From Gemmatimonadota bacterium (GTDB taxonomy: Bacteria > Gemmatimonadota > Gemmatimonadetes > Longimicrobiales > Gaopeijiaceae): DNA of 51,707 bases. Both the position numbers and the translations under genes were made by a program. Positions 3,661 through 21,367 of this stretch are shown one piece after another; position 1 is the first letter of the stretch; each line of letters opens with the position of its first letter. The notes beneath the pieces were generated by a model. It made no database searches and was not told where the DNA came from. It was given only the letters and a program-made list of their open reading frames with translations. The stretch lies in contig PWZC01000281.1 of the NCBI GenBank assembly GCA_003567615.1, forward strand, positions 1 through 51,707. The letters are read 5' to 3'.

Positions 3661-4529
3661 ACTCGAACTCTTCGCAGGAGCACTGCTCCATGGCCACCCC
3701 CTCTCGAGGCACCCTTCGTCGGAGTCCTCGGTCAAGACTACTGCAATGGCCGCTCCTTTTCGTGCTCGGCCTCGTTCTGACGTGGACTGCAGAGCCGCTG
3801 GTGGCCCAGACCCCTGAGCAGTGGGATGCCGCCCGGGAGACCGTTACCCGTGCCGAGCTTCTGGATCTCGTGGAACGATTGGAGACTCAGGCCAACTCCA
3901 CCGCTTACAGCTCCCGCCTTCGTGCTCAGGCTCGCCAGAGCATCGAGGTCATCGAGCAGCGACTCCGGGAAGGTGACTTCCAGATCGGGGATCGTGTCGT
4001 CCTGGAGGTGGAAGGCGAGCCCGACCTCTCTGATACGCTCACCGTCCGGAGTGGTCCCGCAGTGAACGTGCCGGTGGTGGGGCCGCTCTCCCTGGCCGGG
4101 GTGTTGAGGTCCGAACTGCAGGAAGCGATGGAAACCCACATCGAGAGCTACATCCGCTCCCCTGTGATTCAGACCCAGTCCCTGATCCGTCTCTCCGTCA
4201 TCGGAGAGGTGGGAAGCCCCGGTTTCTATGTCGTGCCCGCAGACGTCCCCATCACTGAAATCCTCATGATGGCAGGCGGACCGGGCGGGAACGCGAACCT
4301 CACCCAGATGCGGGTGGAACGGGGCGATCGGCGGATCTGGGAGGGGGAAGCGATGGAACTTGCCGTCATTCGTGGGCGAACCCTTGACCAGATGAATGTG
4401 CAAGCCGGTGATCGGGTTGTGGTCCCGCCGGGAGGTGCTCAGCGAGACGGCTGGGAGCGGGTGCGTCTGGCGGCCACGGTGGTGGGTACCCTGAGTACTC
4501 TCACCTACGTCGTGCTGCGGGTATTCTGA
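3657..4529 (+). CDS. Polysaccharide export protein (Wza/GumB-like, Poly_export + SLBB-type domains) with N-terminal signal/TM segment
   Basis: Hydrophobic N-terminus LLQWPLLFVLGLVLTWTAEPLVAQ. Motif FQIGDRVVLEVEG...LTVRSGPAVNVPVVGPLSLAGVLRSELQEAMETHIESYIRSPVIQ is typical of Poly_export. A second beta-grasp-like block reads MNVQAGDRVVVP. The ATG overlaps the Wzc stop (ATGA at 3657-3660). Confidence 0.75.
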   Translation: MNSNSSQEHCSMATPSRGTLRRSPRSRLLQWPLLFVLGLVLTWTAEPLVAQTPEQWDAARETVTRAELLDLVERLETQANSTAYSSRLRAQARQSIEVIEQRLREGDFQIGDRVVLEVEGEPDLSDTLTVRSGPAVNVPVVGPLSLAGVLRSELQEAMETHIESYIRSPVIQTQSLIRLSVIGEVGSPGFYVVPADVPITEILMMAGGPGGNANLTQMRVERGDRRIWEGEAMELAVIRGRTLDQMNVQAGDRVVVPPGGAQRDGWERVRLAATVVGTLSTLTYVVLRVF

Positions 4530-4582
4530 CCGGCACGTCTCTGGCCTCCGAATCCTGCCCCGCATCTGCCAAGGTACAATGG

Positions 4583-6364
4583 ATGCCCCTCCTCGACCGC
4601 AAGACCTCACAGTTCTTTCGGTACTTCATGCGGGCCTACCCCGGTCGCAGTGCCGTGATGGTCGTGCTGCTGGCCCTGGCGGGGTTTCTCGAGGGCGTTG
4701 GTGTGGTCACCCTCCTTCCGCTGCTGGAATTGGTGGTCGGGGGTGGCAGCGGGGATGTGTCCGGGGTGAGTCGGGCGTTTGCCTCCGCTCTCGAGTCGGT
4801 GGGCCTGGAGGCTTCGCTAGGGATCCTGCTGACCATCATCGTCGGGGCCATGATGGCGAAGGCCGTCGCGTTGTGGCTGGCCATGCGGCAGGTGGGCTTC
4901 ACCGTTGCGCAGGTGACTACGGATCTCAGGATGTCCCTCCTGCGGTCGCTTCTGGCCGTCCGCTGGCGTCACTACGTGACTCAGTCGTCCGGCGCCATCG
5001 CCAACTCCATCAGCAGTGAAGCTCACAGGGCAGCGTCTGCCTACCGAGAGGGGTGTGCTCTCATCGCAGGCATCCTTCAGGTCTCTGTGTATGTGCTGGC
5101 AGCTCTTCTGATTTCATGGCGGATGGCCCTGGGCGCTGTGGTCATCGGTGCCGTTTTCCTCTTTCTGCTGAGGGGTCTGGTCCAGATCGCTCGTGAGGCC
5201 GGACAGGCGCAGACGGATCTGATGAGGTCCCTCATCAGCAGGCTGACCGATGCCCTTCGGGGCATCAAGCCGATCCGCGCCATGGGACGGGAAGATGAGC
5301 TCAGACCCCTCCTGGAGAGGGAGACGGAAGGCCTGAACGACGCATTGAAGCGTCAGGTTTGGGCAGCCGAGACGCTCAGGCTCTTCCACGAGCCTACCGT
5401 CGCGCTGCTTCTTGGTCTGGGTCTCTTCTTCGCCCTGGGCGTGGCTTCGTTTCCGTTTGCTTCCATCATGGTGCTGGCCTTCATCTTCTACCGTCTGATG
5501 ACCCACGCCAATACGCTCCAATCCCGCTACCAGGTACTCACTGTGGGCGAGAGCGCTTTTTGGTCTCTCAAAGAGCAGGTGTGGACCGCTGAGCGAGAAG
5601 CTGAGCCCGATTCGGGGACGAGACGGCCTCCTCCTCTCCTCGAAGGGATCCGGCTCACCAATGTCTTCTTTTCCTACGATCAGACTCCGGTCCTGCGAGG
5701 ACTCGATCTGGAGGTGGAGGCCCATTCGTTCGTGGCTCTCTACGGACCCTCGGGTACCGGTAAGACCACCATCGCCGATCTGATTATCGGCCTTCTCCAA
5801 CCCGATGGGGGAACCATTGAGATCGATGGCGTCTCACTTCCCGAAATCGATCGGAAGGCATGGAGACGGCAGATCGGGTACGTGCCCCAGGAGGTGTTTC
5901 TCTTCCACGACACCATCTACAGCAACGTGACGCTCGGGGACGAGTCGGTGTCTCGATCGGCGGTGGAAGAGGCCCTGAAGGCTGCAGATGCGTGGGCCTT
6001 CGTCGAGGAGCGAGAGGGCGGATTGGACGCAGTGATCGGGGAGGGCGGGTCAAAGCTGTCCGGTGGCCAGCGGCAGCGGATCTCCATTGCCCGAGCTTTG
6101 GTTCACAATCCCCGCCTTCTCATCCTGGACGAGGCCACCGCCGCCCTCGATCCGCTTACCGAGCGGGAGATCCTCGCCACGCTCCGCCGGCTGAGTCGGG
6201 ACGTCACCATCCTGGCCATCTCTCACCAACCTGCCTTGAGGGATGCTGCCGATGTGGTGTACTACCTTGAACATGGAAAGGTGTCGGCAGTGGAAAGAAA
6301 GAAGGAGGAGGTTTTCGCAATGCAACTGTCCGAGGCCCAGCAGATGGTCCTAGGTGAGTCATGA
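4583..6364 (+). CDS. Fused TMD-NBD ABC exporter (MsbA/PglK-like type I exporter), paralog 1
   Basis: N-terminal six-helix-type membrane domain. Walker A GPSGTGKTT, signature LSGGQRQRISIARAL, Walker B LLILDEAT. Long identical runs shared with the 22654-24471 gene. Confidence 0.9.
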   Translation: MPLLDRKTSQFFRYFMRAYPGRSAVMVVLLALAGFLEGVGVVTLLPLLELVVGGGSGDVSGVSRAFASALESVGLEASLGILLTIIVGAMMAKAVALWLAMRQVGFTVAQVTTDLRMSLLRSLLAVRWRHYVTQSSGAIANSISSEAHRAASAYREGCALIAGILQVSVYVLAALLISWRMALGAVVIGAVFLFLLRGLVQIAREAGQAQTDLMRSLISRLTDALRGIKPIRAMGREDELRPLLERETEGLNDALKRQVWAAETLRLFHEPTVALLLGLGLFFALGVASFPFASIMVLAFIFYRLMTHANTLQSRYQVLTVGESAFWSLKEQVWTAEREAEPDSGTRRPPPLLEGIRLTNVFFSYDQTPVLRGLDLEVEAHSFVALYGPSGTGKTTIADLIIGLLQPDGGTIEIDGVSLPEIDRKAWRRQIGYVPQEVFLFHDTIYSNVTLGDESVSRSAVEEALKAADAWAFVEEREGGLDAVIGEGGSKLSGGQRQRISIARALVHNPRLLILDEATAALDPLTEREILATLRRLSRDVTILAISHQPALRDAADVVYYLEHGKVSAVERKKEEVFAMQLSEAQQMVLGES

Positions 6365-7470
6365 CATCCCTCAAGACCGTTCTCCATGTCGTTGGGGCCC
6401 GTCCCAACTTCATGAAGATTGCGCCGATCCTGCGGGCCGCCGAGACCCGTGGCGAATGGCGGAATATGTTGGTCCACACCGGGCAGCATTACGACGCTGA
6501 AATGTCCGACGCCTTCTTCCGGGATCTGGAGATGCCGGCGCCGGACATCCACCTGGGAATCGGATCCGGTACACATGGGGCTCAGACCGCTCGGGTTCTG
6601 GAGGCCATGGAGCAGGTGCTTCTGACACATGCCCCGGATATGGTGGTGGTGGTGGGCGATGTGAACTCCACCCTTGCGGCAGCCCTGGCTGCGGCAAAGA
6701 TGCTCATCCCCGTGGCGCATGTCGAGGCCGGGCTCCGGAGCGGGGATCGGCGCATGCCGGAGGAGCTGAACCGGATCCTCACGGATCAACTCTCTTCCCT
6801 GTGCCTGATCCCGTCGAGGGATGCAGAGCCGAACCTTCGGCGAGAGGGGATTCCCGATGAGCGGATCCGATTCGTCGGCAACGTGATGATCGATTCGCTC
6901 CTCCACGCCATGGACCGAGCCCGTGCCCTGGATACCCTGGAGCGTTTCCAGCTCCAACCGAAGGGGTTCTTCCTGGCGACCCTCCACCGGCCCTCCAACG
7001 TCGATGACCGGGACCAACTGGAAGAAATCCTGTCGGGCCTGCGCACGCTGGCCGAGGAGACCCCCGTCGTACTCCCCCTCCATCCCCGGACCCGGGCACG
7101 AATCGAAGAGTTCTCGCTGGACACGAATGGTCTCCAGATCACGGAGCCCCTGGGGTACCATGAGATCCTTCAGCTCCAGGAGCAGGCTCGCCTGGTCCTC
7201 ACCGATTCGGGAGGAATCCAGGAAGAGACCACCGTGTTGGGCGTGCCGTGTCTGACCCTTCGTTCCAGTACGGAACGACCGATAACAGTGACAGATGGGA
7301 CAAATATGCTAGTGCCTGAGCGAAGTCGCTCCAAAATCCTCATGGCTGTGAATCTTCTCCTTTCGAATCTGTCCATTCCACGCCGTCCTGAGGGGTGGGA
7401 CGGGGTGGCGGCCGAGCGAATCGTGCGCGCCATTGCTGATTTCTTGAGCGAACGGGTCGGTAAAGCGTAG
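6361..7470 (+). CDS. wecB: UDP-N-acetylglucosamine 2-epimerase (non-hydrolysing)
   Basis: VVGARPNFMKIAPI, HTGQHYD..MSD.FF..L, GSG.HG.QTA, VVVGDVNSTLAAALAA, HVEAGLRS.DR.MPEE.NR: the classic WecB/MnaA motif series. The ATG overlaps the ABC stop (ATGA at 6361-6364). Confidence 0.93.
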   Translation: MTSLKTVLHVVGARPNFMKIAPILRAAETRGEWRNMLVHTGQHYDAEMSDAFFRDLEMPAPDIHLGIGSGTHGAQTARVLEAMEQVLLTHAPDMVVVVGDVNSTLAAALAAAKMLIPVAHVEAGLRSGDRRMPEELNRILTDQLSSLCLIPSRDAEPNLRREGIPDERIRFVGNVMIDSLLHAMDRARALDTLERFQLQPKGFFLATLHRPSNVDDRDQLEEILSGLRTLAEETPVVLPLHPRTRARIEEFSLDTNGLQITEPLGYHEILQLQEQARLVLTDSGGIQEETTVLGVPCLTLRSSTERPITVTDGTNMLVPERSRSKILMAVNLLLSNLSIPRRPEGWDGVAAERIVRAIADFLSERVGKA

Positions 7471-7779
7471 GCTGAAGCTCACTCATGGCGTTTGCTGAAG
7501 AGGACGTGGCGGAAGGAGGGCTTGAGGCCCACCGATTTCCTGCGGTCGCACGACATACGCCATGGTCTTTCTCCTTGGGGATCCTGCGACTGTCGTGTTG
7601 GTGGATACGGCAGGTTGACTTACCACATTGAACCATCGACACACATGAAAGCGGTACATATATCTCTTCTGAGGAGATTATTTCACGCATTGGCAACTCG
7701 CCCTTTGGACGTTTCACGCATGATGGTTCGTGGTTTGCTTCATCAAGCGTATGCAATAGGTGAGGGGCCAGACGGTGAT

Positions 7780-8601
7780 ATGCATTTGACCGAAGCTGAA
7801 AAGGCTGAGCAACTATACAAAATCATTAACGGTATAGTTGATGCTAATACACCCCTGCACCCCAAGAGTCACGGTCTATCTTCCCCACTGACAATCTCGT
7901 TGAAGTCTTATCCGCCATGATTTGCCACGCTACACCCAACACTACGGTGTCTGACCGCTCAAACGATGGTTCCGGACAACATCATTCTATGGGTGGCGTC
8001 CGGGGACGAAGGGAGACTTCCGAGCGAGATACGGGATCTAAGTCCGCTGATAGATGTGCGGACATGCGAGGATACTGGGCCTTACAAAAAGATAATCCCT
8101 GCCCTTGAAACGTTTCCTGACCATGTGATCATCACTGCAGATGACGACGCTTACTACTGGCCAAGCTGGCTGGAAGAACTCGTGCAATCATGGAGTGGGC
8201 GACGTACTGAGGTTGTTGGACATCTTCTTCACCGTATACAACTGAATAACGATAGATTACCTGCGCCGTATAGCAATTGGTCCTTGGATGATCCTGGTGC
8301 CACGGCGCCGTCTCGATTGAACTTTCCTGCCGGAGTTGGTGGGGTGCTGTATCCACCGGGTGTTTTTCATTCTGCTGTGTGTAATAGTTCGCTCTTCATG
8401 GATATCTGCCCTATGGCTGACGATGTCTGGCTTTACTGGATGGCAAGACTCAATCAGGCCAGTGCCAGAAGGACCAAGTCACAAAGGTCATTTGTGACAT
8501 GGCTTGAATCTCAAGGTAAAGCCTTGTGGAAGGACAATGTCTCGCATGGTAATGACAACGTCATAAAGGCCATGGTCGCCCATTTTGGTTTCCCCAATTA
8601 G
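7780..8601 (+). pseudogene. Glycosyltransferase (GT-A-like, ADDD motif) interrupted by an in-frame TGA at 7918-7920
   Basis: Track ORFs 7492-7920 and 7966-8601 are in the same frame. Reading through gives ...PLTISLKSYPP*FATLHPTLRCLTAQTMVPDNIILWVASGDEGRLP...IITADDDAYYWPSWLEEL. This is one continuous GT N-terminus (beta1 SL.SYP.RF, then ..Q...PD.IILW). TGA sits where Arg (CGA) is expected. The start at ATG 7780 is a guess. Confidence 0.55.
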
Positions 8602-8727
8602 CGCCGGTATTGGGACCGCTGGTGCTCGCGGCGGGCACACGCGTCGTCCTCCATATTTGCACTCATGTTCGTCGAGGCACCGAAATGGTCACTCCAGCAT
8701 ACCTACCATAAAGAGTGAAGAATTGCA

Positions 8728-9756
8728 ATGCCCGAAGTATCAGTAATCGTTCCCGCATACAATGCGAGCGCTTTGGTACCGAACGCCGTCAAAAGTATAC
8801 GGCAGCAGACCCTGCTCGATCTGGAGGTTCTGCTCGTTGATGATGGTTCTACTGATGCCACAGCCTCCGTTATGGACTTGCTCGCCAAGGAGGACCTGAG
8901 GATCCGAACGGTGAAAATGCCGGAAAACTCAGGTGTTTATGAAGCCAGGGCCACGGGCCTCGAGTTGGCGAGAGGAAAATGGGTAGGGTTCGTCGATTCT
9001 GATGACCTGGTAAAACCGGACATGTTTGAAATCATGGCGCGTGAGGGCGCAGATAGTGGCGCCGATATTGTCATTTGCGGCGTGGATATGTGCGACCAGG
9101 ATGGAAAGTTCCTACGTTACAGGGTGGAATTCCCTAGTACTCATACGGTCACTGAAGGGATTCTAGGACGATTTTGTGGATTCGGGTTTCAGACTGGCTC
9201 TCTTTGGAACAAGCTTTATCGGCGAGAGCTGATCACGAAATATCATGGGAAACCCCTCCGATGGCGACAAGATACCAACGAAGATGTCATCGTAAACATT
9301 GGGTGTTTTGCCGACGCTCTCCGGGTAAGAGTGGTAAAAGATAGTCTTTATAACAACCTCATCCGCACCGAGAGCGTGACACGGAGTCTTGATAACTCAC
9401 GTGCTTTCGTATCGCTGATTCGGGCTTACGCATTGGCCGTAGATCTGTACCACCATAGGGGTGAGGACGTGCTGGGGAATATCGATCGATTGTACCTACA
9501 TCAACTAGCATTCTCCTGCTATCGGGTCCGCTCTCTTGCCGAGTTGGAGCCGCACGCTGATCGATTCCGGGAGGCATTGACGATCCTGGCCAGGCTGCGG
9601 CCAGCCACCTTGTCCGCTTTCGCAAATCGAGGTCTATGGGAACCGGTAAGTCGGCAAAATACATTCGAGAGCAAATGGCGGGAGTGGCTATCCGCGTCCA
9701 AGCAACTGATCAAAAGTCTTGTCCCTCGCGTTCCCCGTGATGCAACACGAGAGTAG
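8728..9756 (+). CDS. Family 2 glycosyltransferase
   Basis: VSVIVPAYNASALVPNAVKSIRQQT, LEVLLVDDGSTD, VGFVDSDD (DxD). Low-GC codon usage. Confidence 0.88.
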   Translation: MPEVSVIVPAYNASALVPNAVKSIRQQTLLDLEVLLVDDGSTDATASVMDLLAKEDLRIRTVKMPENSGVYEARATGLELARGKWVGFVDSDDLVKPDMFEIMAREGADSGADIVICGVDMCDQDGKFLRYRVEFPSTHTVTEGILGRFCGFGFQTGSLWNKLYRRELITKYHGKPLRWRQDTNEDVIVNIGCFADALRVRVVKDSLYNNLIRTESVTRSLDNSRAFVSLIRAYALAVDLYHHRGEDVLGNIDRLYLHQLAFSCYRVRSLAELEPHADRFREALTILARLRPATLSAFANRGLWEPVSRQNTFESKWREWLSASKQLIKSLVPRVPRDATRE

Positions 9757-9788: not shown

Positions 9789-10607
9789 CTAATACTGTGC
9801 CAGCGTGCCCGCCCGCTTCGCGTACTTGAGCCCCACGCGAAATGTGGTGACTCCGACGGTGAGGAGGACCACGGTGAAGGTGAGGAGGATCATAAGGTCC
9901 GGGTAGATCGCTTCGATGGGTAGGCCCTGCAGGACACTCCGGCGGAGCCCACGGAGACCGTAGGTGAGGGGGACCACGAGGGCCAGAGGACGCACGATTT
10001 CAGGGATCACCGAAACAGAGTAGTAGACGCCCCCCAATAGCGTCGACACGGTCACTGTCGCGGCGATGAGCGGGCCTGAGGTGCGGAATACCAGGTGGAG
10101 CGCGGCACCCATGAGTCCCACCGCCAGGTAGCACAGAATGATGAGGCCAAGGATCAGAACGCCCAGGGGGAGTCCGGACCAGGCGATGGACTGCCCTGCA
10201 ATGGGGATGGCAGCCAGCATCAGCGCTGATCGGATCGTGTTCTGGACGAATCCGTACCCCACCAGCCCCGCGAGGAGGACTGGCAGGGACGTGGGTGTGG
10301 CAAAAAGGGCCTCCAGCGTTCCGGATGAGATCCCGGAGGCGATACCGTCGGTTACGCTCCGAATGGCAAAACCCACGTAGAGCGTCGCAATGAGGCCGAG
10401 AATGAGAAAACCGAAATACTGCTCTCCCTCGTCCTGAATGCTTGGGGATACGGTGGGCTGCAGCGCCTCGGCCACGAGAAAGAGGGGGACCAGTGAGACC
10501 AGTAGCCCGAAAAACGAGAAGACGATTCGAAGGCGGTAGCTTAGGGCCGTCAGGGCTGATGCCCGGACCAGGGCCAGGATCTTGGTCATCTCCCGGGTGA
10601 GTCTCAT
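9789..10607 (-). CDS. ABC-2 type transporter permease (putative lasso peptide export/immunity)
   Basis: Multi-TM protein, about six hydrophobic helices. Start trimmed to the ATG at 10607, which overlaps the ATPase stop (ATGA at 10604-10607). The longer track ORF (to 10799) has an Arg/Gly-rich N-terminus that overlaps the ATPase gene. Confidence 0.8.
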   Translation of the reverse strand: MRLTREMTKILALVRASALTALSYRLRIVFSFFGLLVSLVPLFLVAEALQPTVSPSIQDEGEQYFGFLILGLIATLYVGFAIRSVTDGIASGISSGTLEALFATPTSLPVLLAGLVGYGFVQNTIRSALMLAAIPIAGQSIAWSGLPLGVLILGLIILCYLAVGLMGAALHLVFRTSGPLIAATVTVSTLLGGVYYSVSVIPEIVRPLALVVPLTYGLRGLRRSVLQGLPIEAIYPDLMILLTFTVVLLTVGVTTFRVGLKYAKRAGTLAQY

Positions 10608-11668
10608 GCGCACCCCGCCACCACAGAAGAGGATTGAGCGGCGGGAATCGGATCGGCGGACAGGGTCTCTATGAATTCCGCCAGCGGCACTTCGCGGGGA
10701 CTCAGAAGAGCCACCTCGATCCCAAGCCCGGTGAGTTCCCGCACGAAGCGAGCGGCGGCGGCCCGCCCGCCGGGAATGTGGAGTCGGACGTGTTCCCACC
10801 CCTCACCGTCTCTGGCCTCCGGTAGGCCGTCCACCTCCAGATACGCCACTGAACCCAGTTGGCGGAGCGCCGCCTTCACTCGACCCCGGGCCACCAGTCG
10901 GTAGCGATTGTCCGCGACGGCCTCGAAGAGGTCGTCGGTGCGGCCATTCACCACAAGACGCCCATTCTCGAGAATCCCCACCCGGGGGCAGAGCTCCCGA
11001 ACCTCTTCCGCATCATGGGTGGCCAAGAGGATCGTGCACCCCTGTTCCCGGTTGATCCGGTCCCGAAGGAACACCCGGAGATTCCGGGCCGACACCGGGT
11101 CCAGGCTGCGGGTCGGTTCGTCCAGGAGCAGGACCGCCGGATCCGAAAGGAGCGCTCTGGCGACCAGAAGCCTTTGCTTCATCCCGGACGAAAAGAGACC
11201 CACCTGTTTCGTGCCCGTATCCCCAAGATCCACCACGTCCAGGACGTGGTCCACCCGCTTACGGGCCTCGACTCCGGAGAATCCCTGTAGCGATGCGTAG
11301 AGCTTGAGATTCTCTTCGGCATTCAACCGCCAGTAGAGCGACCGCTCATAGGGAATCACGGGGACGAGACGCCGCCGCACCGCCATGGGATCCTCGGCAA
11401 CGTCGATACCATCGACCCTGGCCGTTCCCGAGTCGGGGAGTACGAGTGTGGCCAGGATCTTGAAGAGCGTCGTCTTTCCGGCGCCGTTCTTCCCCAGAAG
11501 CCCAAAGAACTCCCCCTTACGTACGGAGATGGAGACGTCGTGAAGAGCTTCCTGATAGGAAGTGGATCGCGGGTGGAGGACGGTTTCCTTCCAGGAGCGT
11601 CGCACCGGAAATCGCTTGGAGACCGCCTTCACTTCGACCAGTCCGCCTGCGTCGACGGAGGGCGTCAT
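10604..11668 (-). CDS. ABC transporter ATP-binding protein (ABC-2 subfamily partner)
   Basis: Walker A GLLGKNGAGKTT, signature FSSGMKQRLLVARAL, Walker B LLLDEPTRSLD, H-loop LLATHD. The ATG overlaps the B2 stop (ATGA at 11665-11668). Confidence 0.92.
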   Translation of the reverse strand: MTPSVDAGGLVEVKAVSKRFPVRRSWKETVLHPRSTSYQEALHDVSISVRKGEFFGLLGKNGAGKTTLFKILATLVLPDSGTARVDGIDVAEDPMAVRRRLVPVIPYERSLYWRLNAEENLKLYASLQGFSGVEARKRVDHVLDVVDLGDTGTKQVGLFSSGMKQRLLVARALLSDPAVLLLDEPTRSLDPVSARNLRVFLRDRINREQGCTILLATHDAEEVRELCPRVGILENGRLVVNGRTDDLFEAVADNRYRLVARGRVKAALRQLGSVAYLEVDGLPEARDGEGWEHVRLHIPGGRAAAARFVRELTGLGIEVALLSPREVPLAEFIETLSADPIPAAQSSSVVAGCA

Positions 11669-12168
11669 GCGATGGAGTCCGGGAGGTCTACCGAGAAAAC
11701 CTCGGGCAGCTTGCGAAACGAATGGATGTGGGCGGGATCATCTCCGATCACTACGGCGTCCAGCTCCACCCAGGCGTGGGCCTGGAAGTCACCGTCCAGC
11801 TTTCTGACCCCCACCTCCACCCGGCAGGGGCCGAGACCCTCTCGGCGCAGAAGATCCCGGAGGGCCAGAGATCGCACGAGGCACTGGGGTCGGCCCGGAC
11901 CGAAGCGGGCCGCCTGGTGCACCGCCCAGGCCAGGTCCGACGCCCTGCGCCTCTTCTCCAGGGAAAGGGAGACCAGACCGTCGGCCTTCAGTCCGGCATG
12001 CCCCCCGGTCTCGTCGAGCCTGGCGGCTGTAAGGAAGCGGCCCCTGGGAATCGTGGCCTTCCGAACGCCCCAGCGCATGAGCGCTACCTGCGCGCGGCCC
12101 AGATCAGCCCAGCCGCGTGGGCCGATGGAGGCGAGCGTCTGTAGGCGTCCCAGTGTTCTGGAGAGCAC
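11665..12168 (-). CDS. Lasso peptide leader peptidase, B2 protein (transglutaminase-core cysteine protease, McjB C-terminal-domain type)
   Basis: Signature RPQCLVRSLALRDLLRREGL...VGV......FQAHAWVELD, the Cys/His/Asp core typical of lasso B2 proteins. Size about 167 aa. GTG start at 12168. Confidence 0.88.
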   Translation of the reverse strand: MLSRTLGRLQTLASIGPRGWADLGRAQVALMRWGVRKATIPRGRFLTAARLDETGGHAGLKADGLVSLSLEKRRRASDLAWAVHQAARFGPGRPQCLVRSLALRDLLRREGLGPCRVEVGVRKLDGDFQAHAWVELDAVVIGDDPAHIHSFRKLPEVFSVDLPDSIA

Positions 12169-12267: not shown

Positions 12268-12447
12268 TCAGGAGGGGGTGGGGGTGCAGAACTTGTCGCT
12301 CCGTATGCTCGGAGTGCACCGGCCCCACCCGAAGGCCTCCCAGCCCTCATACGCATCAAAATCGGCGATACCGAGTCCCTCACCACCCCTGGTGAGTTCA
12401 CGGAAGGTACCGAGGCAGGTGAGTCGAGGCGTCTCATACATGGGCAT
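12268..12447 (-). CDS. Lasso peptide precursor A1 (59 aa): MPMYETPRLTCLGTFRELTR | GGEGLGIADFDAYEGWEAFGWGRCTPSIRSDKFCTPTPS
   Basis: Internal ATG of track ORF 12268-12507, preceded by GGAG 4 nt upstream (ctgcGGAGccgtATG). The leader has the lasso motif Y-x-x-P-x-L-x3-G-x5-T with Thr at -2. The core starts with Gly1 and has Asp9, suitable for a 9-residue macrolactam. It lies between the cyclase and B2 genes. Confidence 0.85.
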   Translation of the reverse strand: MPMYETPRLTCLGTFRELTRGGEGLGIADFDAYEGWEAFGWGRCTPSIRSDKFCTPTPS

Positions 12448-12508: not shown

Positions 12509-14440
12509 TCATGCCAACCTAGCCTTCAACCACCTTTCGCTGGAAATTGCCCTGAGCAGGGAGGCCCAACCTCCGGAATCCAGGTCTGCCTTGGACTGAA
12601 GGAGGACTCTGAGCGGGTCGCGGCGAATGAGTCCCATCTCCTCCGTCAACCACTCTTCGGGTCGAGCCAGTTCCACGTCGGCCTGTCTCAACAGTTCGGG
12701 AACGTAGATCTCTCGCATGAGACCTTGGGCCGTTCCGGTCCGAAGGCCACGGTTTCGAATCTCCAGGAACGTGTGCGGAAGGTACGGTCTCATGGCGTCC
12801 CGTAACAGGGCTTTCGGTTCGAGGGGACGGTACATCCAGGACGGCGGAAAGCTGCGGATCAGTCGCGCAAGTCGAAGGTCCAGTAGTGGGGATCGCAGTT
12901 CCACTCCCCTGAAGCGCAGGTCGTCGAAGAGGGCGGCACCAAATCGACTAAATCGATAGTTCAGGAGCGCCCAGGCGCGCCATCCTTCGAAGGGTGAGTC
13001 CGCCGTCTCCATCCGGAGGGAATCGAAGCTCTCCTGGTCAACCAAGAGGATCTCCTGCGCCTCCTCTGTGGAGGTTCGGATCCACTCCGGCAGGGACCGG
13101 CCCGCCGGGCGGGGAATGATGGTCCTTCCCAGGATATGTTCCAGCCTCCGACCGAGATCCGGGTGTAGGTTGATCCGGACAGATGTGTCGATGGCTCGCC
13201 ATATGGGGATGGGGCGATGAGCCCAGAGCAGGCGGGCAGACACGATGGGCCTGAAGCGCCGGAAATGCTCGGCCAAAACCATGCTCGGGGAGGTGGAAAA
13301 CTGATTGTCGCCTCCACGGCCGGTCAAGAGCACCCGATGGCCCTCCTGGATGGCTCGGGTGGCCAGCGCCTGCTGCACACCGTTGAAGGGATACCGGCCG
13401 GGGTGGGAGTGATGGTCCTGAGGCCGATCCAGCCATTGCTCCGTCCGGATCGCATCGTACCCCACCCACTGAACGTCCAGGCTGAAGTGTCGGGCTGCGG
13501 ACTCGATCCACGGTCGCTCGAACCCGGGGTCCCCCTCGGGATAGTCGATGGAGAGGAGGGCGAGATCCCGCTGCCGGGCCGTCGAACCGGCCCCCTTCAA
13601 GCCGGCGAGAACGGCGGACGAATCCTGACCACCACTGAGCGCCAGGGAAGCGCCCACGCTGGGGGACCGTTCCGCCACACTGGCAAGGATCTGCCGGCCG
13701 ACAACCCCTGCCGCTTCTTCCCGCGGCGGCCTGGTGGTCGCCCACAACTCGGGCTGGCCAGCGAACCGGTGCACGCGAAGGTCGCCCCGACCCGCTGTGA
13801 CGAAGTGACCGGCAGGGAGTTCCAGGATCCCCTTCCAGGCGGTCCGGGAGCCATCTCCGGGGATTCCCGAGAGAGCGCTGAAAACCCCGGCTTCGTCGAA
13901 AGCCGGATATGGGGCAGGCGCACCCGCCGGACCCGCGCCCGCCAGGACAGTGGCAGACGAGTGCATGAGGATGGTGGAGCCCAGGGTCCGATAGAATAGC
14001 GACCGGGTGCCAAATACATCCCTGGCCGCAAAGAGCGTGCTGTCCGAGGTGTTCCACGCACAGAAGGCGTAGTCCCCCTCCAGGTGCAGCACACACGCCT
14101 CTCCGTAGGCCAGATAGGCGGCAGCAATGAGGTCGGCCGGACTCAACGACACAGGAGGATGCCCGATCTTCTTCAGCTTTTCCAGCAGATCGCTTCGGAA
14201 GTAGAGGCTCGCATCGCAGCCGACCACAACGGGGCCTGCCCGACCCATGAGGACCGGGCTCGCCACGTCATCCTCCATTTCCCACCGATCCCGGGCCACT
14301 CCGAGGAAGCCCCCCGAGTCGAACCTCTTGACCTCCACCTGCTCGGAGCCACGCCATGCTGCGCCCCGCAGGAGGGCTCGAACCCGTTCTTCGGGCCATG
14401 CATCCGGATGCGGGTCGACCCCGGCTGAGAGACATGTCAC
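12509..14440 (-). CDS. Lasso peptide cyclase C1 (asparagine synthetase B-fold, ATP-dependent macrolactam synthetase)
   Basis: PP-loop LALSGGQDSSAVLAGL. The AsnB-like N-domain lacks the Met-Cys glutaminase start (it begins V/M-T-C-L-S-A-G from GTG 14440). The N-terminus is colinear with the second cyclase. Adjacent to the precursor and B2. Confidence 0.85.
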   Translation of the reverse strand: MTCLSAGVDPHPDAWPEERVRALLRGAAWRGSEQVEVKRFDSGGFLGVARDRWEMEDDVASPVLMGRAGPVVVGCDASLYFRSDLLEKLKKIGHPPVSLSPADLIAAAYLAYGEACVLHLEGDYAFCAWNTSDSTLFAARDVFGTRSLFYRTLGSTILMHSSATVLAGAGPAGAPAPYPAFDEAGVFSALSGIPGDGSRTAWKGILELPAGHFVTAGRGDLRVHRFAGQPELWATTRPPREEAAGVVGRQILASVAERSPSVGASLALSGGQDSSAVLAGLKGAGSTARQRDLALLSIDYPEGDPGFERPWIESAARHFSLDVQWVGYDAIRTEQWLDRPQDHHSHPGRYPFNGVQQALATRAIQEGHRVLLTGRGGDNQFSTSPSMVLAEHFRRFRPIVSARLLWAHRPIPIWRAIDTSVRINLHPDLGRRLEHILGRTIIPRPAGRSLPEWIRTSTEEAQEILLVDQESFDSLRMETADSPFEGWRAWALLNYRFSRFGAALFDDLRFRGVELRSPLLDLRLARLIRSFPPSWMYRPLEPKALLRDAMRPYLPHTFLEIRNRGLRTGTAQGLMREIYVPELLRQADVELARPEEWLTEEMGLIRRDPLRVLLQSKADLDSGGWASLLRAISSERWLKARLA

Positions 14441-14614: not shown

Positions 14615-14923
14615 ATGATCAAGCTTCCGAATCGAGGTCCCAACGTCATCTTCCAGGAGATGGACGACGAGGCTGTTCTGTTCTGTACCCAGTCCGAAGT
14701 CTACTTCGGGCTGAATTCAGTCGGCAAGACGATCTGGGAATTGTTGGGGGATGGAGTTACCCGCTTCGACAAATTGATTGCGCTCCTGTCACAGCGATAT
14801 CCAGAGGTCGAGGAACGTGTTCTGCAAGAGGATGCCGCAGAATTCCTCGAGCAACTTCACGAGAACGGCTTGGTCACAGCCCCGGCGGCCGACCCTCAGC
14901 AGGACGATGCCGGGCATGGATGA
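14615..14923 (+). CDS. PqqD-family RiPP recognition element, lasso B1 protein
   Basis: MIKLPNRGPNVIFQEMDDEAVLFCTQSEVYFGLNSVGKTIWELLGDG...LIALLSQRYPEV...EDAAEFLEQLHENGLV: a typical PqqD/RRE pattern of about 100 aa. An upstream in-frame start at 14519 is possible, but it would add a non-homologous 32-aa extension. Confidence 0.82.
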   Translation: MIKLPNRGPNVIFQEMDDEAVLFCTQSEVYFGLNSVGKTIWELLGDGVTRFDKLIALLSQRYPEVEERVLQEDAAEFLEQLHENGLVTAPAADPQQDDAGHG

Positions 14924-15957: not shown

Positions 15958-17202
15958 TCATTTCCCCAGGAGACCCCGCACGTAGGCGGTGGTCTCCACA
16001 ACCCGATCCAGACGTCGTCGGACCGGACTGGGAGGCGTCAGTGAGTCCGGAGCCGAGGAGTCTGCCGGCGAATCCTCCCCCACTTTCGTCTCGATTCCCG
16101 CCGACTTCCACGCGTCAGTCCGCGCCCACGGTCGAATCGTGCCGTGCTCTGAGCGACCCGGTCGGAGGGCTGCCTCCCAGATCAGTTGCCGGATCTTCAC
16201 GGGTGGCCGGGGCGCCCGCGAGGGGGGAGCGAACATCTGGGCATAGTGCTTTCTGACCAGGGCGATGATGGGCTTTGGCGTCGGTGCCTCCAGCGTCTCC
16301 AACCAGTCCGGGTCCACGGGAACATTGCCCCATTCTGTGGCCAGATGAAGTGTCCACCAGAGAGTGGATTCCGCTTTGGCCTGTCGGGCCGTACGGACGA
16401 CCTGATCCCACTGAAGCTCGGGGCGGGTGACGAGCAGACCGGTATCTCGAAGCGCCTTCCACGTGCCAGACTCGAGTGCATGGGACCAGGCGAAGTGGAT
16501 TGAGTTGTGGATGAGCATGTGCTCCCACGATGGCCTCAGGGTTCCCGGTAGGGCGCCGATGGGTACGGCCTCCCGCCACAGGTCCCGCGCAGCGAAGTGG
16601 AACGGATTCTCCTTCTGGAAGATCTCCGTGTGGATCTCCAGTCCGAGGAAAAGGCCGCTGCCATCTACGAGGGGTGGAAGATGGTGATGCTCTTCGTAGA
16701 CCTCTTCCTGGACCGAGTTGGCCCGATGGGCCCAATCGAGACCGCGCGCAATTTCCCATACTGCAGAAGAGTGCTCGGGATGGACAAGAAGGTCCACATC
16801 CCACATGGGGCGGTCGATCACCGGGAGATCCAGGGCGTGGACCAGGCCGCTCCCCTTCAGCAGAACCAAGGGGATCGAAGCCGACTCGCACTCCGCGGCA
16901 AGACGACGAAGTTTGCGCTGCATTTCTCCGAGCCTGAGGGCGTGGGTGAGCCGAAGACGCTGCATGGCCTTCAGGCCGTCGTCATCGATGTCCAGTCCCG
17001 GGTGGGATCGTCTCGTCGCGGTGAGGGCATGGACGAGAGCGGGTAGCGCCGACTCCCGTTGCGCAAGATAGATCAGGAGGGGCCAGTCAACGGACCCGTC
17101 CCACCCGGCATCGGTGAGCTCTCGCAGTACATGGGAGCCCTCGGGCCTTCGATGCGCTGTGGCCAGGACAAGCCGTGATTCCCACAAGAGCGAATCTTTC
17201 AT
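15958..17202 (-). CDS. Nucleotidyltransferase-fold family protein (uncharacterised NTP_transf_5-like), putative lasso tailoring enzyme
   Basis: PLVLLKGSGL...PMWDVDLLV (G-S ... D-x-D nucleotidyltransferase core) followed by a helical C-terminal region. Start trimmed to ATG 17202, preceded by AGGAAG (AGGAAGCTCATG). The track ORF to 17349 would overlap the cyclase C2 3' end. Confidence 0.6.
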   Translation of the reverse strand: MKDSLLWESRLVLATAHRRPEGSHVLRELTDAGWDGSVDWPLLIYLAQRESALPALVHALTATRRSHPGLDIDDDGLKAMQRLRLTHALRLGEMQRKLRRLAAECESASIPLVLLKGSGLVHALDLPVIDRPMWDVDLLVHPEHSSAVWEIARGLDWAHRANSVQEEVYEEHHHLPPLVDGSGLFLGLEIHTEIFQKENPFHFAARDLWREAVPIGALPGTLRPSWEHMLIHNSIHFAWSHALESGTWKALRDTGLLVTRPELQWDQVVRTARQAKAESTLWWTLHLATEWGNVPVDPDWLETLEAPTPKPIIALVRKHYAQMFAPPSRAPRPPVKIRQLIWEAALRPGRSEHGTIRPWARTDAWKSAGIETKVGEDSPADSSAPDSLTPPSPVRRRLDRVVETTAYVRGLLGK

Positions 17203-17276: not shown

Positions 17277-19214
17277 TCAGGATCGAGGCGGTGCGTGCGC
17301 TTGCAGCCACTCTTCGACGGCAACCATGGCCACGATGAACGCATCCCACTCCAGCCTCCCCTCGAGAGCCCGATCGACGCTGCGGCGGAACCGATCCGGA
17401 GAGACCAATCCCATCCTGACAGACTCCCAGGGCGTGCGCAACCGCGATATCTTCTCCTGGATCTCAGATTCAAGCCGACGATGGAAGTAGTGTTCAAATG
17501 TGCCCGTCTTGCCCCGCCCACCGAGACGGGGCGCCAGGATTTCCTCGGGAAGTCTGCCCCTCATGGAGTCGCGGAGCAGGGGCTTCAGTTCTCCCGGGCG
17601 ATGCATCTCCTCGAATGGGCGGCTCAGGGCGAAAGACAGGACGCGTCGATCGTAGAAGGGCGAGCGGAGTTCCACGCCCTCACTTCTGAGGACCGCGAAG
17701 AGGGTCGCGCACACCCGGGAGAAGCGGGAATCCGACGCGGCCCATACCCGGAAGCGGGAATCGACGGAACGATGACGGGCCAGGACCCTCTTTGCATACG
17801 CGGTGCGATTGCCCTCCCGGATCTTGCTCACTTCGAGGACTTCGCCATTGAGCCAGGGGGGCACCGGCCACTCAAAGGGGCGGGAATCGATGGGACGGCG
17901 GAGAACCAGCTCGAGAAGGTCGAACATGGGATAGGGAATGGACGGCTTTATGACCCAACGTTTGATGTGCCCGAGTTTCGGTCGGCGGCCTTCGGGCAGA
18001 AGACGAAAAAGTTGTAGCCACCGCCCGCTACGAAAGAGATCAGCGAGAAAATAGGGCGGAACGAAAAAGAGATTATCACCACCATTCCCGCTGAGGAGGA
18101 CGCGCACGCCGAGGTCACGGGCTGTCCGACCAAGGGCCCGGTTCAGGCTTTCGTGGAGGTGACCTTCCGGATAGGCACGCTCAGCAACCTGGGAAGGATC
18201 GCGGTTCAACAATCGGATACCGTCGGTATCAACCCAGTTTATTGGGAGCCCAAAGGATTCCGCAGCTATCGAAAGATAACGATCTTCATTTGCATGTTCT
18301 TCCGGAGGTAGCCTGTATGAGAGAAGGTGGAACGGAATGTCTTCCGGGAAGGTCTCAGTCCCTCTGTAGAGTGCGCCCAGTAGAGCCGTCGAGTCATAAC
18401 CTCCACTTATGGCCAGGCCTGCCCCTGACTCGGGTACTCGCCCGCGGACGGATTTCGAAAGGATGGCCGCCAATGCCTCCGGCGCTTCCCGGCCCCAGGA
18501 TACCTGAGCTGCTGGATCTGACCCGGGCTTCCACGATTCACTGATTCGAAAGCTGACGCCTTCGGCATTGTCCTCATGCACCCAGGCATCCAGATGATGG
18601 CCCGGTGGGAGTTCCTCGATCCCTTCCCAGGCGGACGCCTGACCCACTCCACCGTGGAAGAGGAGTGACCTGAGCGTCGCAACCGGGTTGAACGATGGGG
18701 GACGTTCGAACAGCGAGACGAGGGGATGTGGAGTGGAGGCGAGCAGCAATCCCCCATCCACCTGCCGGAAGAAGAGGCTTCGCGATCCGAAGGGGTCCCG
18801 GGCTGCAAGGAGAGTTCGCTTCTCCGGATCCCAGGCGACAAAGGCGAAGTCCCCGAAGAGGTGATTCGGGCAGTTCCCACCCCACGCTCGATAGGAGGCG
18901 GCGATGAGATCCGAGGGAGACTTTGATCGGGGTGGCCATCCTGAGACGCTGAGATGTCCGCTCAGCGCCTTCCGGTCGTAGAGCGCAGCGTCTGAACAGA
19001 CAAGGGCCGACTCGCAAGTTCCAATGCGAGCCGGCCCTGCAATGTCGTCGGGTTCTTCCCAATCGTCCCGGATGACCCCCAACATCGCCCCGTCCGAGCG
19101 AATCACATCAAGCTTTTCCGAGCCTCTGCCTGGAATGGCCCGCAGCAACCGAGCGAATCCATCATGGTCAAGCCGCTGTGCAGCCGGTCCCAGGAATGCA
19201 ATGATTCCACTCAT
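17277..19214 (-). CDS. Lasso peptide cyclase C2 (asparagine synthetase B-fold)
   Basis: Starts MSGIIAF, with no Cys nucleophile. PP-loop LAISGGYDSTALLGAL. Colinear with C1 (e.g. GDFAFVAWDPEKRTLLAARDPFGSRSLFF versus GDYAFCAWNTSDSTLFAARDVFGTRSLFY). Precursor A2 lies immediately upstream. Confidence 0.85.
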   Translation of the reverse strand: MSGIIAFLGPAAQRLDHDGFARLLRAIPGRGSEKLDVIRSDGAMLGVIRDDWEEPDDIAGPARIGTCESALVCSDAALYDRKALSGHLSVSGWPPRSKSPSDLIAASYRAWGGNCPNHLFGDFAFVAWDPEKRTLLAARDPFGSRSLFFRQVDGGLLLASTPHPLVSLFERPPSFNPVATLRSLLFHGGVGQASAWEGIEELPPGHHLDAWVHEDNAEGVSFRISESWKPGSDPAAQVSWGREAPEALAAILSKSVRGRVPESGAGLAISGGYDSTALLGALYRGTETFPEDIPFHLLSYRLPPEEHANEDRYLSIAAESFGLPINWVDTDGIRLLNRDPSQVAERAYPEGHLHESLNRALGRTARDLGVRVLLSGNGGDNLFFVPPYFLADLFRSGRWLQLFRLLPEGRRPKLGHIKRWVIKPSIPYPMFDLLELVLRRPIDSRPFEWPVPPWLNGEVLEVSKIREGNRTAYAKRVLARHRSVDSRFRVWAASDSRFSRVCATLFAVLRSEGVELRSPFYDRRVLSFALSRPFEEMHRPGELKPLLRDSMRGRLPEEILAPRLGGRGKTGTFEHYFHRRLESEIQEKISRLRTPWESVRMGLVSPDRFRRSVDRALEGRLEWDAFIVAMVAVEEWLQAHAPPRS

Positions 19215-19801: not shown

Positions 19802-21367
19802 ATGGCTTCCGATCCCCAGCTCGACCTTTCCTTCCTGACCCGCCTCGGCGTGGACGGCACCCACCTCTCGGGCACCTCCACCGGACGGCATACCCTGGAC
19901 CCGGCCACCGACGCCGACAGTCCGGCCTCTCTCCGAAGCACCACACCGGTGGATGGGAGCCTCATTGCCACCGTGGCGAGCACCGATCGTAGTCAGTACG
20001 AAGAGGTTGTGGCCCGAGCCCAGGAGGCGTTCCGGTTCTGGCGCGAGGTGCCGGCCCCTCGACGGGGTGAGGTCGTTCGGCAGATCGGCGACGAACTCCG
20101 GGCCCACAAGGACGATCTCGGCCGGCTGGTGGCCTATGAAATGGGCAAGATCACCGAGGAAGGGAAGGGCGAAGTTCAGGAGATGATCGACATCTGCGAC
20201 TTCGCCGTGGGTCAGTCCAGGATGCTCTACGGGAAGACCATGCCCTCAGAGCGCCCCGAGCACCGCCTCTACGAGCAGTGGCACCCCCTGGGACCGGTGG
20301 CGGTGATCACGGCCTTCAACTTCCCGGTGGACGTCTGGGCCTGGAACGCCATGATCGCCGCAGTTTGCGGCGATGTCATCATCTGGAAGCCATCGGAGAA
20401 GACGCCGCTGTGCGCCATGGCGGTGCAGGGGATCGTGGCCCGGGTTCTGGAGCGGAACGAACTCCCCGAGGGGATCTTCTCCGTCGTTCAGGGAGGGCGC
20501 GAGGTGGGCGAGTTCCTCACCACCGACGAGCGCATTCCCCTGGTTTCGGCCACCGGGTCAATCCGCATGGGGCGTGAGGTGGGCCGCACGGTAGCGGTGC
20601 GTCTCGGCCGCACTCTGTTGGAGTTGGGCGGCAACAACGCCATCATCGTCTCGAGCCAGGCCGACCTGGACCTGGCCGTTCGGGCCATCGTCTTCGGCGC
20701 TGCGGGCACGGCGGGACAGCGGTGCACCACAACCCGTCGTCTCATCGTCCATGAGGATGTCTTCGACGAGCTGAGGGAGCGCCTGATCCGGGCTTACTCC
20801 GGGCTTCGTATCGGCAGTCCCCTGGATCCGGAGACGCTGGTTGGGCCCCTGGTGGATGCCGACGCCGCTCGGGCCATGCAGGAGGCGCTGGAGCAGCTCA
20901 AGGCCTCGGGGGGTGAGGTCCTCTTCGGGGGCGAGATTCTGGATGGGGAGGGATTCGAGGCGGGGAACTATGTCCGCCCGGCCATCTGCCTGGCCGAGAA
21001 CGACTTTCCCATCGTTCAGGAAGAGACCTTCGCACCCATCCTCTATCTCATGCGCTACCGGGAGCTGAATGAGGCCATCGACCTCCAGAACGGAGTCCGG
21101 CAGGGGCTCAGCTCGTCCATCTTCACCAACGACGTTCGGGAAGCTGAAGCTTTTCTCAGCGCGCGCGGGTCCGACTGTGGGATCGCCAACGTGAACATCG
21201 GCACCAGCGGCGCCGAGATCGGGGGTGCCTTCGGCGGGGAGAAGGACACCGGAGGCGGGCGCGAGTCGGGCTCCGATTCCTGGAAGGTCTACATGCGCCG
21301 CCAGACCAACACCATCAACTGGGGGCGGACGCTCCCCCTCGCCCAGGGGATCGAATTCGACGTGTGA
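19802..21367 (+). CDS. Aldehyde dehydrogenase, ALDH7/antiquitin-like (alpha-aminoadipic semialdehyde / piperideine-6-carboxylate dehydrogenase type)
   Basis: LELGGNNAIIV, catalytic GQRCTTTRRL, EETFAPILY, and the ALDH7-typical C-terminus GSDCGIANVNIGTSGAEIGGAFGGEKDTGGGRESGSDSWKVYMRRQTNTINW. Start trimmed to ATG 19802 (MASDPQL...). Confidence 0.88.
   Translation: MASDPQLDLSFLTRLGVDGTHLSGTSTGRHTLDPATDADSPASLRSTTPVDGSLIATVASTDRSQYEEVVARAQEAFRFWREVPAPRRGEVVRQIGDELRAHKDDLGRLVAYEMGKITEEGKGEVQEMIDICDFAVGQSRMLYGKTMPSERPEHRLYEQWHPLGPVAVITAFNFPVDVWAWNAMIAAVCGDVIIWKPSEKTPLCAMAVQGIVARVLERNELPEGIFSVVQGGREVGEFLTTDERIPLVSATGSIRMGREVGRTVAVRLGRTLLELGGNNAIIVSSQADLDLAVRAIVFGAAGTAGQRCTTTRRLIVHEDVFDELRERLIRAYSGLRIGSPLDPETLVGPLVDADAARAMQEALEQLKASGGEVLFGGEILDGEGFEAGNYVRPAICLAENDFPIVQEETFAPILYLMRYRELNEAIDLQNGVRQGLSSSIFTNDVREAEAFLSARGSDCGIANVNIGTSGAEIGGAFGGEKDTGGGRESGSDSWKVYMRRQTNTINWGRTLPLAQGIEFDV

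Follow-up and report, generated by a model that had tools for sequence, protein, structure and literature searches.

Lasso peptides are valued as ultra-stable scaffolds and as antibiotics. Those characterized so far are 14-33 amino acids (aa) long and include pandonodin (33 aa, with the longest tail, of 18 aa) and achromonodin-1 (30 aa) (PMC13352647, PMC12214591), and solved structures come from three phyla only (PMC12214591). In the linear precursor, the C-terminal Ser is the target of the kinases PadeK, ThcoK, SyanK and PsmK, which phosphorylate it, sometimes repeatedly, before the precursor is processed by the leader peptidase (B2) and the cyclase (C) (PMC9266682, PMC6993621, PMC8498205), and the attachment of one or two hexoses to the Ser phosphate requires PsmN (PMC6993621). 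The class IV peptides (LP2006, pandonodin and the felipeptins) contain a tail-tail disulfide that is formed without a dedicated enzyme (PMC9266682). Genome mining has already predicted lasso cores of 12-160 aa, and antiSMASH-type surveys have counted lasso clusters in metagenome-assembled genomes (MAGs) of Gemmatimonadota (PMC11316326). A characterized lasso peptide from this phylum was not found in the literature (the RODEO and LassoPred core tables lay outside this comparison), nor was the description of any lasso peptide in which C-terminal phosphorylation occurs together with a disulfide. Here we analyze a lasso precursor gene, A1, and the genes surrounding it on a contig of 51,707 nucleotides (nt) from a Gemmatimonadota bacterium of the order Longimicrobiales (PWZC01000281.1, assembly GCA_003567615.1), to which we refer in its entirety as the window.

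The core predicted for A1 has 39 residues, which exceeds every characterized lasso peptide and yet is a usual size in an unstudied family that occurs widely in the Gemmatimonadota. Its product is best read as a putative lasso peptide with a Gly1-Asp9 ring and a phospho-modified terminal Ser, similar in type to paeninodin and pseudomycoidin, and it probably has a tail disulfide like those of class IV.

The precursor gene A1

All coordinates are window positions. A1 is located on the minus strand and is divided as follows.

12268-12447, minus strand: precursor gene A1, 59 aa (57 aa if the start is the second ATG, 12441)
12447-12388, minus strand: A1 leader, 20 aa, with RELTR at its end
12387-12271, minus strand: A1 core, 39 aa, beginning with GGEG and ending with TPTPS

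The ATG start codon (12447-12445) is preceded, 4 nt upstream, by the sequence GGAG (12455-12452), and the frame ends at a TGA stop codon (12270-12268). The translation, written as leader/core, is MPMYETPRLTCLGTFRELTR/GGEGLGIADFDAYEGWEAFGWGRCTPSIRSDKFCTPTPS. Reading the minus strand reproduced exactly the translation, the start codon and the GGAG position given in an earlier preliminary description of this DNA, and a recount of the core (G1, D9, W16, F19, W21, C24, C34 and S39) returned the same numbers for its three aromatic residues, its two cysteines and its C-terminal Ser. A second in-frame ATG at 12441 (MYE...) lies 6 nt after the first and 10 nt from the GGAG sequence, and gene callers are split between the two starts, giving proteins of 59 aa (12447) and 57 aa (12441). 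Because the homologues at the related loci L005, L006, L007 and L055 begin at the counterpart of ATG 12441 (MYE/MYQ), and because L005 has no in-frame ATG further upstream, the true start of A1 may be ATG 12441; the core would be unaffected. A longer open reading frame (ORF) that starts at TTG 12507 was rejected: it is not conserved, and the upstream DNA of the window and that of L005 do not align. The weak match of this long ORF to the Pfam family DUF5972 (E 0.008) was below the cutoff and was disregarded.

The window has a G+C content of 64.8%. Open frames alone therefore carry little weight, and independent evidence is needed. Firstly, A1 matches the NCBIfam model NF033521 ('lasso RiPP family leader peptide-containing protein', RiPP standing for a peptide that is made on the ribosome and modified post-translationally) with 26.3 bits, the curated cutoff being 19, and a six-frame motif scan of the window returned only one further lasso-precursor ORF, A2, at 19502-19341. 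Secondly, independent gene callers predict exactly A1, with a length of 59 or 57 aa, on about 12 metagenome contigs, one of which is from the JGI sample SL_9KL_010_SED. Thirdly, A1 starts 61 nt downstream of the lasso cyclase gene C1, and the related contig L005, whose cyclase is 57% identical to C1, has a precursor, MYEASRLTRFGGFRDLTQ/GGEGAGIADFDAYDGWEAIGWGRCTPSIRKDKYCNPIVS, at the same position. This precursor is 74% identical to A1 and retains the 39-residue core with D9, W16, W21, C24, C34 and S39. In an alignment of the window with L005 the ORF is about 80% identical, while the flanks cannot be aligned. The differences at codon positions 1, 2 and 3 number 11, 9 and 28, respectively; 20 codons differ only synonymously and 15 non-synonymously, and the ratio of non-synonymous to synonymous substitution rates (dN/dS) has a value of 0.10 for the whole ORF and of 0.12 when only the core is considered. 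The bias towards the third position, the dN/dS value of 0.10 and the unalignable flanks argue that this is the frame in which A1 is translated and that purifying selection acts on the peptide as far as its last residue. On the evidence of its sequence, then, A1 can be considered a genuine lasso precursor gene, as the preliminary description had proposed.

The A1 core sequence is rare. A word-indexed protein search with A1 returned nothing except A1 itself, and an exhaustive phmmer search against 1.84 billion representatives yielded one true relative, P0025, which is of the L005 type. Two long repetitive proteins that were also returned by phmmer (E ~4e-4) are regarded as chance matches. The same applies to L083, the sole return of a metagenome scan with the A1/L005 alignment, in which the match lies inside a larger unrelated ORF. 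Likewise, no regulatory element can be claimed around A1: a promoter check found no promoter-like site around the gene, the one terminator-like hairpin within the ORF is at chance level (0.4 expected), and the 197-nt spacer between A1 and the B2 gene folds no better than shuffled sequences (z = 0.05).

Leader and core

The preliminary description had placed Thr at position -2, Gly at +1 and Asp at +9, in line with a 9-membered macrolactam. This assignment agrees with an alignment of six precursors, those of the window and of the loci most closely related to it (L005-L007), in which Tyr-17, Gly-8, Arg-5, Thr-2 and Asp+9 are invariant. The A1 leader contains the motif Y..P.L...G..RELT., and the invariant leader residues, together with Asp+9, point to cleavage after Thr-Arg and to Asp9 as the ring acceptor. 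Three other acidic residues were rejected as acceptors, none of them being conserved in the homologues, whereas Asp9 is invariant; Glu3 is too near to residue 1, and Asp11 and Glu14 fall outside the known range of 7-9.

Some of the relatives have short cores of 24-27 aa, such as that of L006, GGSRSGNFDTSASNWIEFFFTGSPSTS, and those of L007 and L055, AG..LGFGDTAGVW.F.LT.PSTS. A1 and these short cores have in common the ring, an aromatic cluster 5-12 residues past Asp9 and a P-x-x-S end. In global alignments, the short cores show a single gap of 12-13 residues facing the Cys-containing segment of A1; the gap corresponds exactly to RCTPSIRSDKFC in the alignment with L006, and to the overlapping GWGRCTPSIRSDK in those with L007 and L055. 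Although the scores of these alignments are low, they suggest that A1 may correspond to a lasso core of the short type into which a loop bounded by Cys has been inserted.

The two cysteines, C24 and C34, are identical in the window and in L005, in contrast to the residues around them, which vary. They are the only two cysteines of the core and both are located in the tail, as in class IV peptides. With regard to the bulky residues W16, F19 and W21, which had been put forward as plugs, L005 retains the two tryptophans and has Ile in place of F19. W16 and W21 are therefore the better plug candidates. The terminal Ser is kept in the nearest homologues (L005, L006, L007 and L055). It had been noted as the position that is phosphorylated in paeninodin-type clusters, which agrees with the literature (PMC9266682) and with the presence of an HPr-kinase-like gene in the cluster.

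The preliminary description was right that 39 aa lies beyond the characterized lasso peptides, although the range of about 14-26 aa that it gave for them is too narrow, the published range being 14-33 aa. It left two options for the length of A1, a very long tail or further C-terminal trimming. Of these, a very long tail is the favored one, since purifying selection acts on the entire tail up to and including the last Ser. The interpretation as a whole was thus supported; what it had overlooked are the precedents of the tail-tail disulfide of class IV and of the kinase and nucleotidyltransferase of pseudomycoidin.

The gene cluster

A1 is surrounded by the following genes.

12509-14440, minus strand: lasso cyclase C1, 643 aa, asparagine-synthetase-like, with an SGGQDS PP-loop, directly upstream of A1
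11665-12168, minus strand: leader peptidase B2, a transglutaminase-like Cys protease, 137 aa (from 12078) or 167 aa (from 12168)
10604-11668, minus strand: ABC transporter ATP-binding subunit, DrrA-like
9789-10607, minus strand: ABC-2 type permease, 272 aa as called
14615-14923, plus strand: B1 / RiPP recognition element (RRE), PqqD-like, 102 aa, PF05402 (3.2e-16), divergent from C1
14907-15947, plus strand: HPr-kinase-like kinase, 346 aa, with His146, Lys167, Asp184 and Asp185
15958-17202, minus strand: PF14907 'uncharacterised nucleotidyltransferase', 414 aa as called (4.5e-29), with a GS...DVD motif
17277-19214, minus strand: second lasso cyclase C2, 645 aa
19341-19502, minus strand: second precursor A2, 53 aa, NF033521 (25.4 bits)

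From high to low coordinates, the order on the minus strand is A2, C2, the PF14907 gene, C1, A1, B2, the ABC ATPase and the ABC-2 permease, and the plus strand carries, divergent from C1, B1 followed by the gene for the 346-aa kinase-like protein. The full lasso set of C, B1 and B2 is thus present beside A1 (PF00733, PF05402 and NF033537, respectively). C1 matches PF00733 and GATase_7, its matches to NF033535 and NF033561 being below the cutoff, and each of its homologues is followed by a precursor gene. C1 is presumed to be the macrolactam synthetase for A1; the pairing is drawn, short of proof, from the adjacency of the two genes in the window and also in L005. B2 matches PF13471 (2.4e-22) and, with 74 bits against a cutoff of 33, NF033537 (lasso_biosyn_B2). 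B1 is the only gene of its kind in the cluster, and the DrrA-like ABC subunit is presumed to be an exporter or immunity protein.

The cluster contains two cyclase/precursor pairs but only a single gene each for B1, B2, the kinase and the nucleotidyltransferase. The A2 core, SGTTVNGGDPANGYSSGIGDFVSSTVEISCSGC, has 33 aa, Asp9 and two cysteines, and its last residue is Cys rather than Ser. L005 has a similar second pair, whose core, GWEPHANADSINSAGVLELGTGSPTCSGPDSNC, also ends in Cys.

Two further sets of genes adjoin the cluster. A gene for a 521-aa aldehyde dehydrogenase is located beside the lasso genes in the window (19802-21367, plus strand), in L005 (2623-4188) and in L006 (2468-4033). It was found in these three related loci, with 897-920 bits, and is absent from the other 75; it could reflect the synteny of close relatives or be an accessory gene of a sub-clade. 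On the other side, polysaccharide-export and glycosylation genes (1102-9756, plus strand) abut the lasso ABC permease gene convergently. They comprise genes for a GNVR/AAA_31 chain-length regulator, Poly_export and an ABC exporter, as well as a UDP-GlcNAc 2-epimerase-like gene (6361-7470) and a gene for a GT2 glycosyltransferase (8728-9756). This set is probably unrelated to the lasso cluster, the glycosyltransferase being of note since relatives among the lasso peptides are hexosylated.

The putative tailoring enzymes

A profile built from 31 members of the kinase family matches the HPr kinases 1ko7 (E 3.6e-5) and 1jb1 (1.3e-4), and the match to the catalytic core of HPr kinase/phosphatase spans the LHG...GxGKS...DD segment. 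All 31 members match TIGR04352. Their alignment shows no variation at His146, Asp184 or Asp185, and Lys167 is conserved to at least 90%. Mutagenesis has demonstrated that this His-Lys-Asp-Asp motif is indispensable to the lasso-tailoring kinases of the paeninodin type (PMC9266682). The kinase encoded in the window thus appears to be an HPr-kinase homologue with a His-Lys-Asp-Asp motif, as judged by family profile and motif, and it is presumed to act on the C-terminal Ser of A1. In public records the kinases of this family, which form at least 1230 clusters at 90% identity, are found as 'hypothetical protein' only.

Since A2 ends in Cys, A1 is the sole precursor in the window with a terminal Ser. 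That the tailoring genes belong with A1 and not with A2 is suggested by two observations: first, A2 and its L005 counterpart both end in Cys, and second, the nucleotidyltransferase gene of L005 directly follows the A1 homologue. PsmN, which has the catalytic pair D134/D136, is also termed an 'uncharacterised nucleotidyltransferase' (PMC6993621).

Relatives in the Gemmatimonadota

A scan with an alignment of the cyclases, for which one genome per species was used, returned 75 loci, almost all of them in Gemmatimonadota MAGs (Gemmatimonadaceae, Gemmatimonadales and Longimicrobiales). The layout of the related loci is conserved and is usually B1-B2-C-A-K-ABC-permease-N. Genes were counted by tblastn with the window proteins in 78 loci, and because many of the contigs are incomplete the counts are minima: the kinase and B1 were each matched in 68 loci, B2 in 65, the ABC ATPase in 58, the permease in 57 and the nucleotidyltransferase in 54.

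A scan of the related loci with the leader motif gave 78 distinct cores. Their median length is 34.5 aa; 40 of them are longer than 33 aa and 32 have at least 39 aa, one of the latter, of 137 aa, being a clear read-through artefact, and otherwise the cores reach 49 aa. Fifty-nine cores end in Ser. At least two cysteines are present in 65, exactly two, always in the tail, in 48, and three in 17. Asp8 is present in 57 cores and Asp9 in 17. The long core, the tail Cys pair and the terminal Ser of A1 are common in this survey, so that they represent traits of a phylum-wide family, not oddities of one gene.

Three further features of the family can be mentioned. The first core residue at L008-L082 is often Val, Ile, Leu or Trp, and some loci (L026, L027, L032, L047, L053 and L078) have two or three precursors. 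Furthermore, there is a sub-family with cores of the type VGFNGTTDG...GSPVSIG (L013, L022, L028, L037, L080 and others), which have three cysteines and often end in -SIG, -SVG or -SIT, with a kinase gene present at the locus. Close relatives of this sub-family end exactly at ...SPVS. There are two readings for the VGFNG sub-family: a kinase target that is not strictly C-terminal, or removal of the last residues.

A model for maturation and its alternatives

We consider it probable that A1 encodes a translated lasso precursor that is matured by a pathway comprising B1, the kinase, B2, C1, the ABC transporter and disulfide formation. In this model, the single PqqD-like B1 protein would bind the leader through its conserved motif, after which the HPr-kinase-like kinase would modify, that is, phosphorylate, Ser39. 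The PF14907 nucleotidyltransferase homologue may extend the phosphate, for instance with a hexose as in pseudomycoidin. B2 would then cleave after Thr-Arg, with Thr at position -2, and C1 would link the amine of Gly1 to the side chain of Asp9, thus forming a 9-residue macrolactam around the tail, which would probably be held in place by the conserved aromatics W16 and W21. The DrrAB-like ABC transporter would export the product, and Cys24 and Cys34 would then probably oxidize, creating an 11-residue tail loop and a topology like that of class IV. Most likely, the mature product keeps all 39 residues. What the sequences demonstrate is the ORF, its place in the leader family, the complete set of enzymes, the conservation of Asp9, of both cysteines and of Ser39, and purifying selection across the core; each chemical step, the threading, the choice of cyclase for A1 and any biological activity are inferred.

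Four alternatives have to be weighed against this model. An unlikely one, which nevertheless retains an appreciable chance, concerns the fate of Cys24 and Cys34: they may not form a tail disulfide but be reduced, metal-bound or otherwise cross-linked, in which case the product would belong to class II and have free thiols. Sequence does not reveal the redox state, the gene list of the cluster includes no oxidoreductase, and 17 of the 78 family cores have three cysteines. On the other hand, both cysteines are invariant between the window and L005 amid neighbors that vary, and the prevailing pattern in the family, seen in 48 cores, is that of exactly two cysteines, always in the tail. Moreover, class IV disulfides form without dedicated enzymes (PMC9266682).

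It is rather improbable that A1 is a real precursor whose tail is trimmed by proteases after cyclization, the 39-residue core being an intermediate. Carboxypeptidases often shorten lasso tails during expression (PMC13352647), the characterized peptides stop at 33 aa, and no structure is known for the A1 family. What speaks against trimming is that the whole tail, including C24, C34 and the last Ser, is conserved in L005, with a core dN/dS of 0.12. In addition, a terminal Ser is present in 59 of the 78 family cores with a kinase gene alongside, exoproteases would be impeded by a phospho(glyco)-Ser as well as by a disulfide loop, and the gene list of the cluster includes no dedicated protease.

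We attach a similarly small probability to a branched-cyclic product, which would either be unthreaded or be locked only through a bulky C-terminal modification or the disulfide loop. Threading is not readable from sequence, and pseudomycoidin made without kinase and nucleotidyltransferase was unthreaded, which led its authors to propose the phospho-hexose as the lock (PMC6993621). However, all members of the Asp9 group have aromatics 5-12 positions past Asp9 (W16 and W21 in A1, and W/F clusters in L006, L007 and L055), which are typical plug candidates, and the set of cyclase, B1 and B2 is canonical. Finally, it is hardly credible that A1 is a chance or decaying, untranslated ORF, or that the real gene is the longer ORF from TTG 12507: a high-GC genome does yield many spurious ORFs and three other frames are open across the region, but A1 matches NF033521 above its cutoff, it shows third-position bias and a dN/dS of 0.10 with respect to L005, the ORF is about 80% identical between flanks that cannot be aligned, gene callers choose the 57/59-aa ORF, and the same gene position is filled in more than 70 related loci.

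Several observations count against the proposed maturation of A1 into a threaded, Ser-modified 39-residue peptide. To start with the peptide, no observed product of the A1 cluster or of any Gemmatimonadota cluster was found in the literature, and no characterized lasso peptide is longer than 33 aa (PMC13352647, PMC12214591). Threading of A1 cannot be assumed, because pseudomycoidin without its modifications was unthreaded (PMC6993621). The selection analysis is based on a single pair, A1 and L005, the latter being the sole close homologue. As to the enzymes, the window kinase taken alone gives a weak match to TIGR04352 (E ~3e-3) and another weak one to TIGR04355, and a single-sequence search with it returned no Pfam match and no PDB match. 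The link between terminal Ser and kinase is not absolute, because some kinase-bearing members (VGFNG...SPVSIG) do not end in Ser. Lastly, the likeness of the PF14907 enzyme to PsmN is one of position and annotation.

The maturation of A1 by the pathway outlined above can be taken one step further. It is possible, and we propose it tentatively, that the product is a full-length, 39-residue lasso peptide with a Gly1-Asp9 ring, a disulfide loop in a tail of about 18 or more residues and a phospho(glycosyl)ated Ser, a trio of features that has never been seen together, and that it is the first representative of a family of 'giant' lasso peptides, with cores of up to 49 aa, that extends across the Gemmatimonadota. 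If so, the A1 product would be the largest known lasso peptide. The tail loop and the C-terminal modification might then serve as extra mechanical locks or constitute a small folded domain, and two cyclase/precursor pairs would be served by the same RRE, protease, kinase and nucleotidyltransferase.

A1 and its more than 75 relatives point to an untouched family whose members normally have cores of 35-49 residues, tail Cys pairs and terminal-Ser kinases. The phylum in which it occurs, the Gemmatimonadota, is abundant but has rarely been cultured. A1 bears on the question of how large a threaded peptide can be made by the lasso machinery, as well as on the coexistence of a disulfide and a phospho-glycosyl group on one lasso peptide and on the role of C-terminal phosphorylation. 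If A1 behaves like its known cousins, on the other hand, it will be just another lasso peptide from a new phylum.

Comparison with known systems

In gene content the closest system is the pseudomycoidin cluster (psmC-A-K-B1-B2-N-D) of Bacillus pseudomycoides DSM 12442. Like the A1 cluster, it has split B1 and B2 genes, a cyclase and an ABC exporter, and it also shares with it an HPr-kinase-like kinase, an 'uncharacterised nucleotidyltransferase' gene and a precursor that ends in Ser. For pseudomycoidin it has been established that PsmK (poly)phosphorylates the Ser and that PsmN adds one or two hexoses (PMC6993621); the A1 cluster has all of these types of gene. The two differ in phylum, pseudomycoidin being from the Bacillota, as well as in gene order and orientation. 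They also differ in the peptide: pseudomycoidin has a mass of about 2.6 kDa (m/z 2618) and no reported disulfide, whereas A1 has 39 aa with two tail cysteines. Furthermore, the A1 cluster, unlike that of pseudomycoidin, has two cyclase/precursor pairs and a two-gene, DrrAB-like exporter.

Similarity in kinase chemistry is greatest to paeninodin (Paenibacillus dendritiformis C454) and to the polyphosphorylated lasso peptides ThcoA/SyanA. The window kinase has, in H146/K167/D184/D185, the His-Lys-Asp-Asp motif of the kinases of these systems, and the ring of their peptides, like that proposed for A1, is formed between residue 1 and an inner Asp. Paeninodin has about 23 aa, and A1 is much longer. 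In the paeninodin group the Ser is phosphorylated before processing by B2 and C (PMC9266682), and A1 likewise has a terminal Ser. These peptides have been described only from the Bacillota and Pseudomonadota (PMC8498205), belong to class II and are devoid of Cys, and their cores show no similarity to that of A1.

With respect to the shape of the peptide, pandonodin and the other class IV members (LP2006 and the felipeptins) come closest. They have one disulfide within the tail, and A1 has two conserved tail cysteines, with 30 residues past the ring. The class IV clusters, which are from the Pseudomonadota and Actinomycetota, consist of A-D genes only, with no kinase or nucleotidyltransferase, whereas A1, whose core is 6 residues longer than pandonodin, is accompanied by machinery for the modification of a terminal Ser. 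The predicted size of A1, its predicted combination of modifications and the two A/C pairs that are predicted to share accessory enzymes are features of the kind that variants of known systems display. To a specialist in lasso peptides the cluster is unsurprising in principle but attractive as a target.

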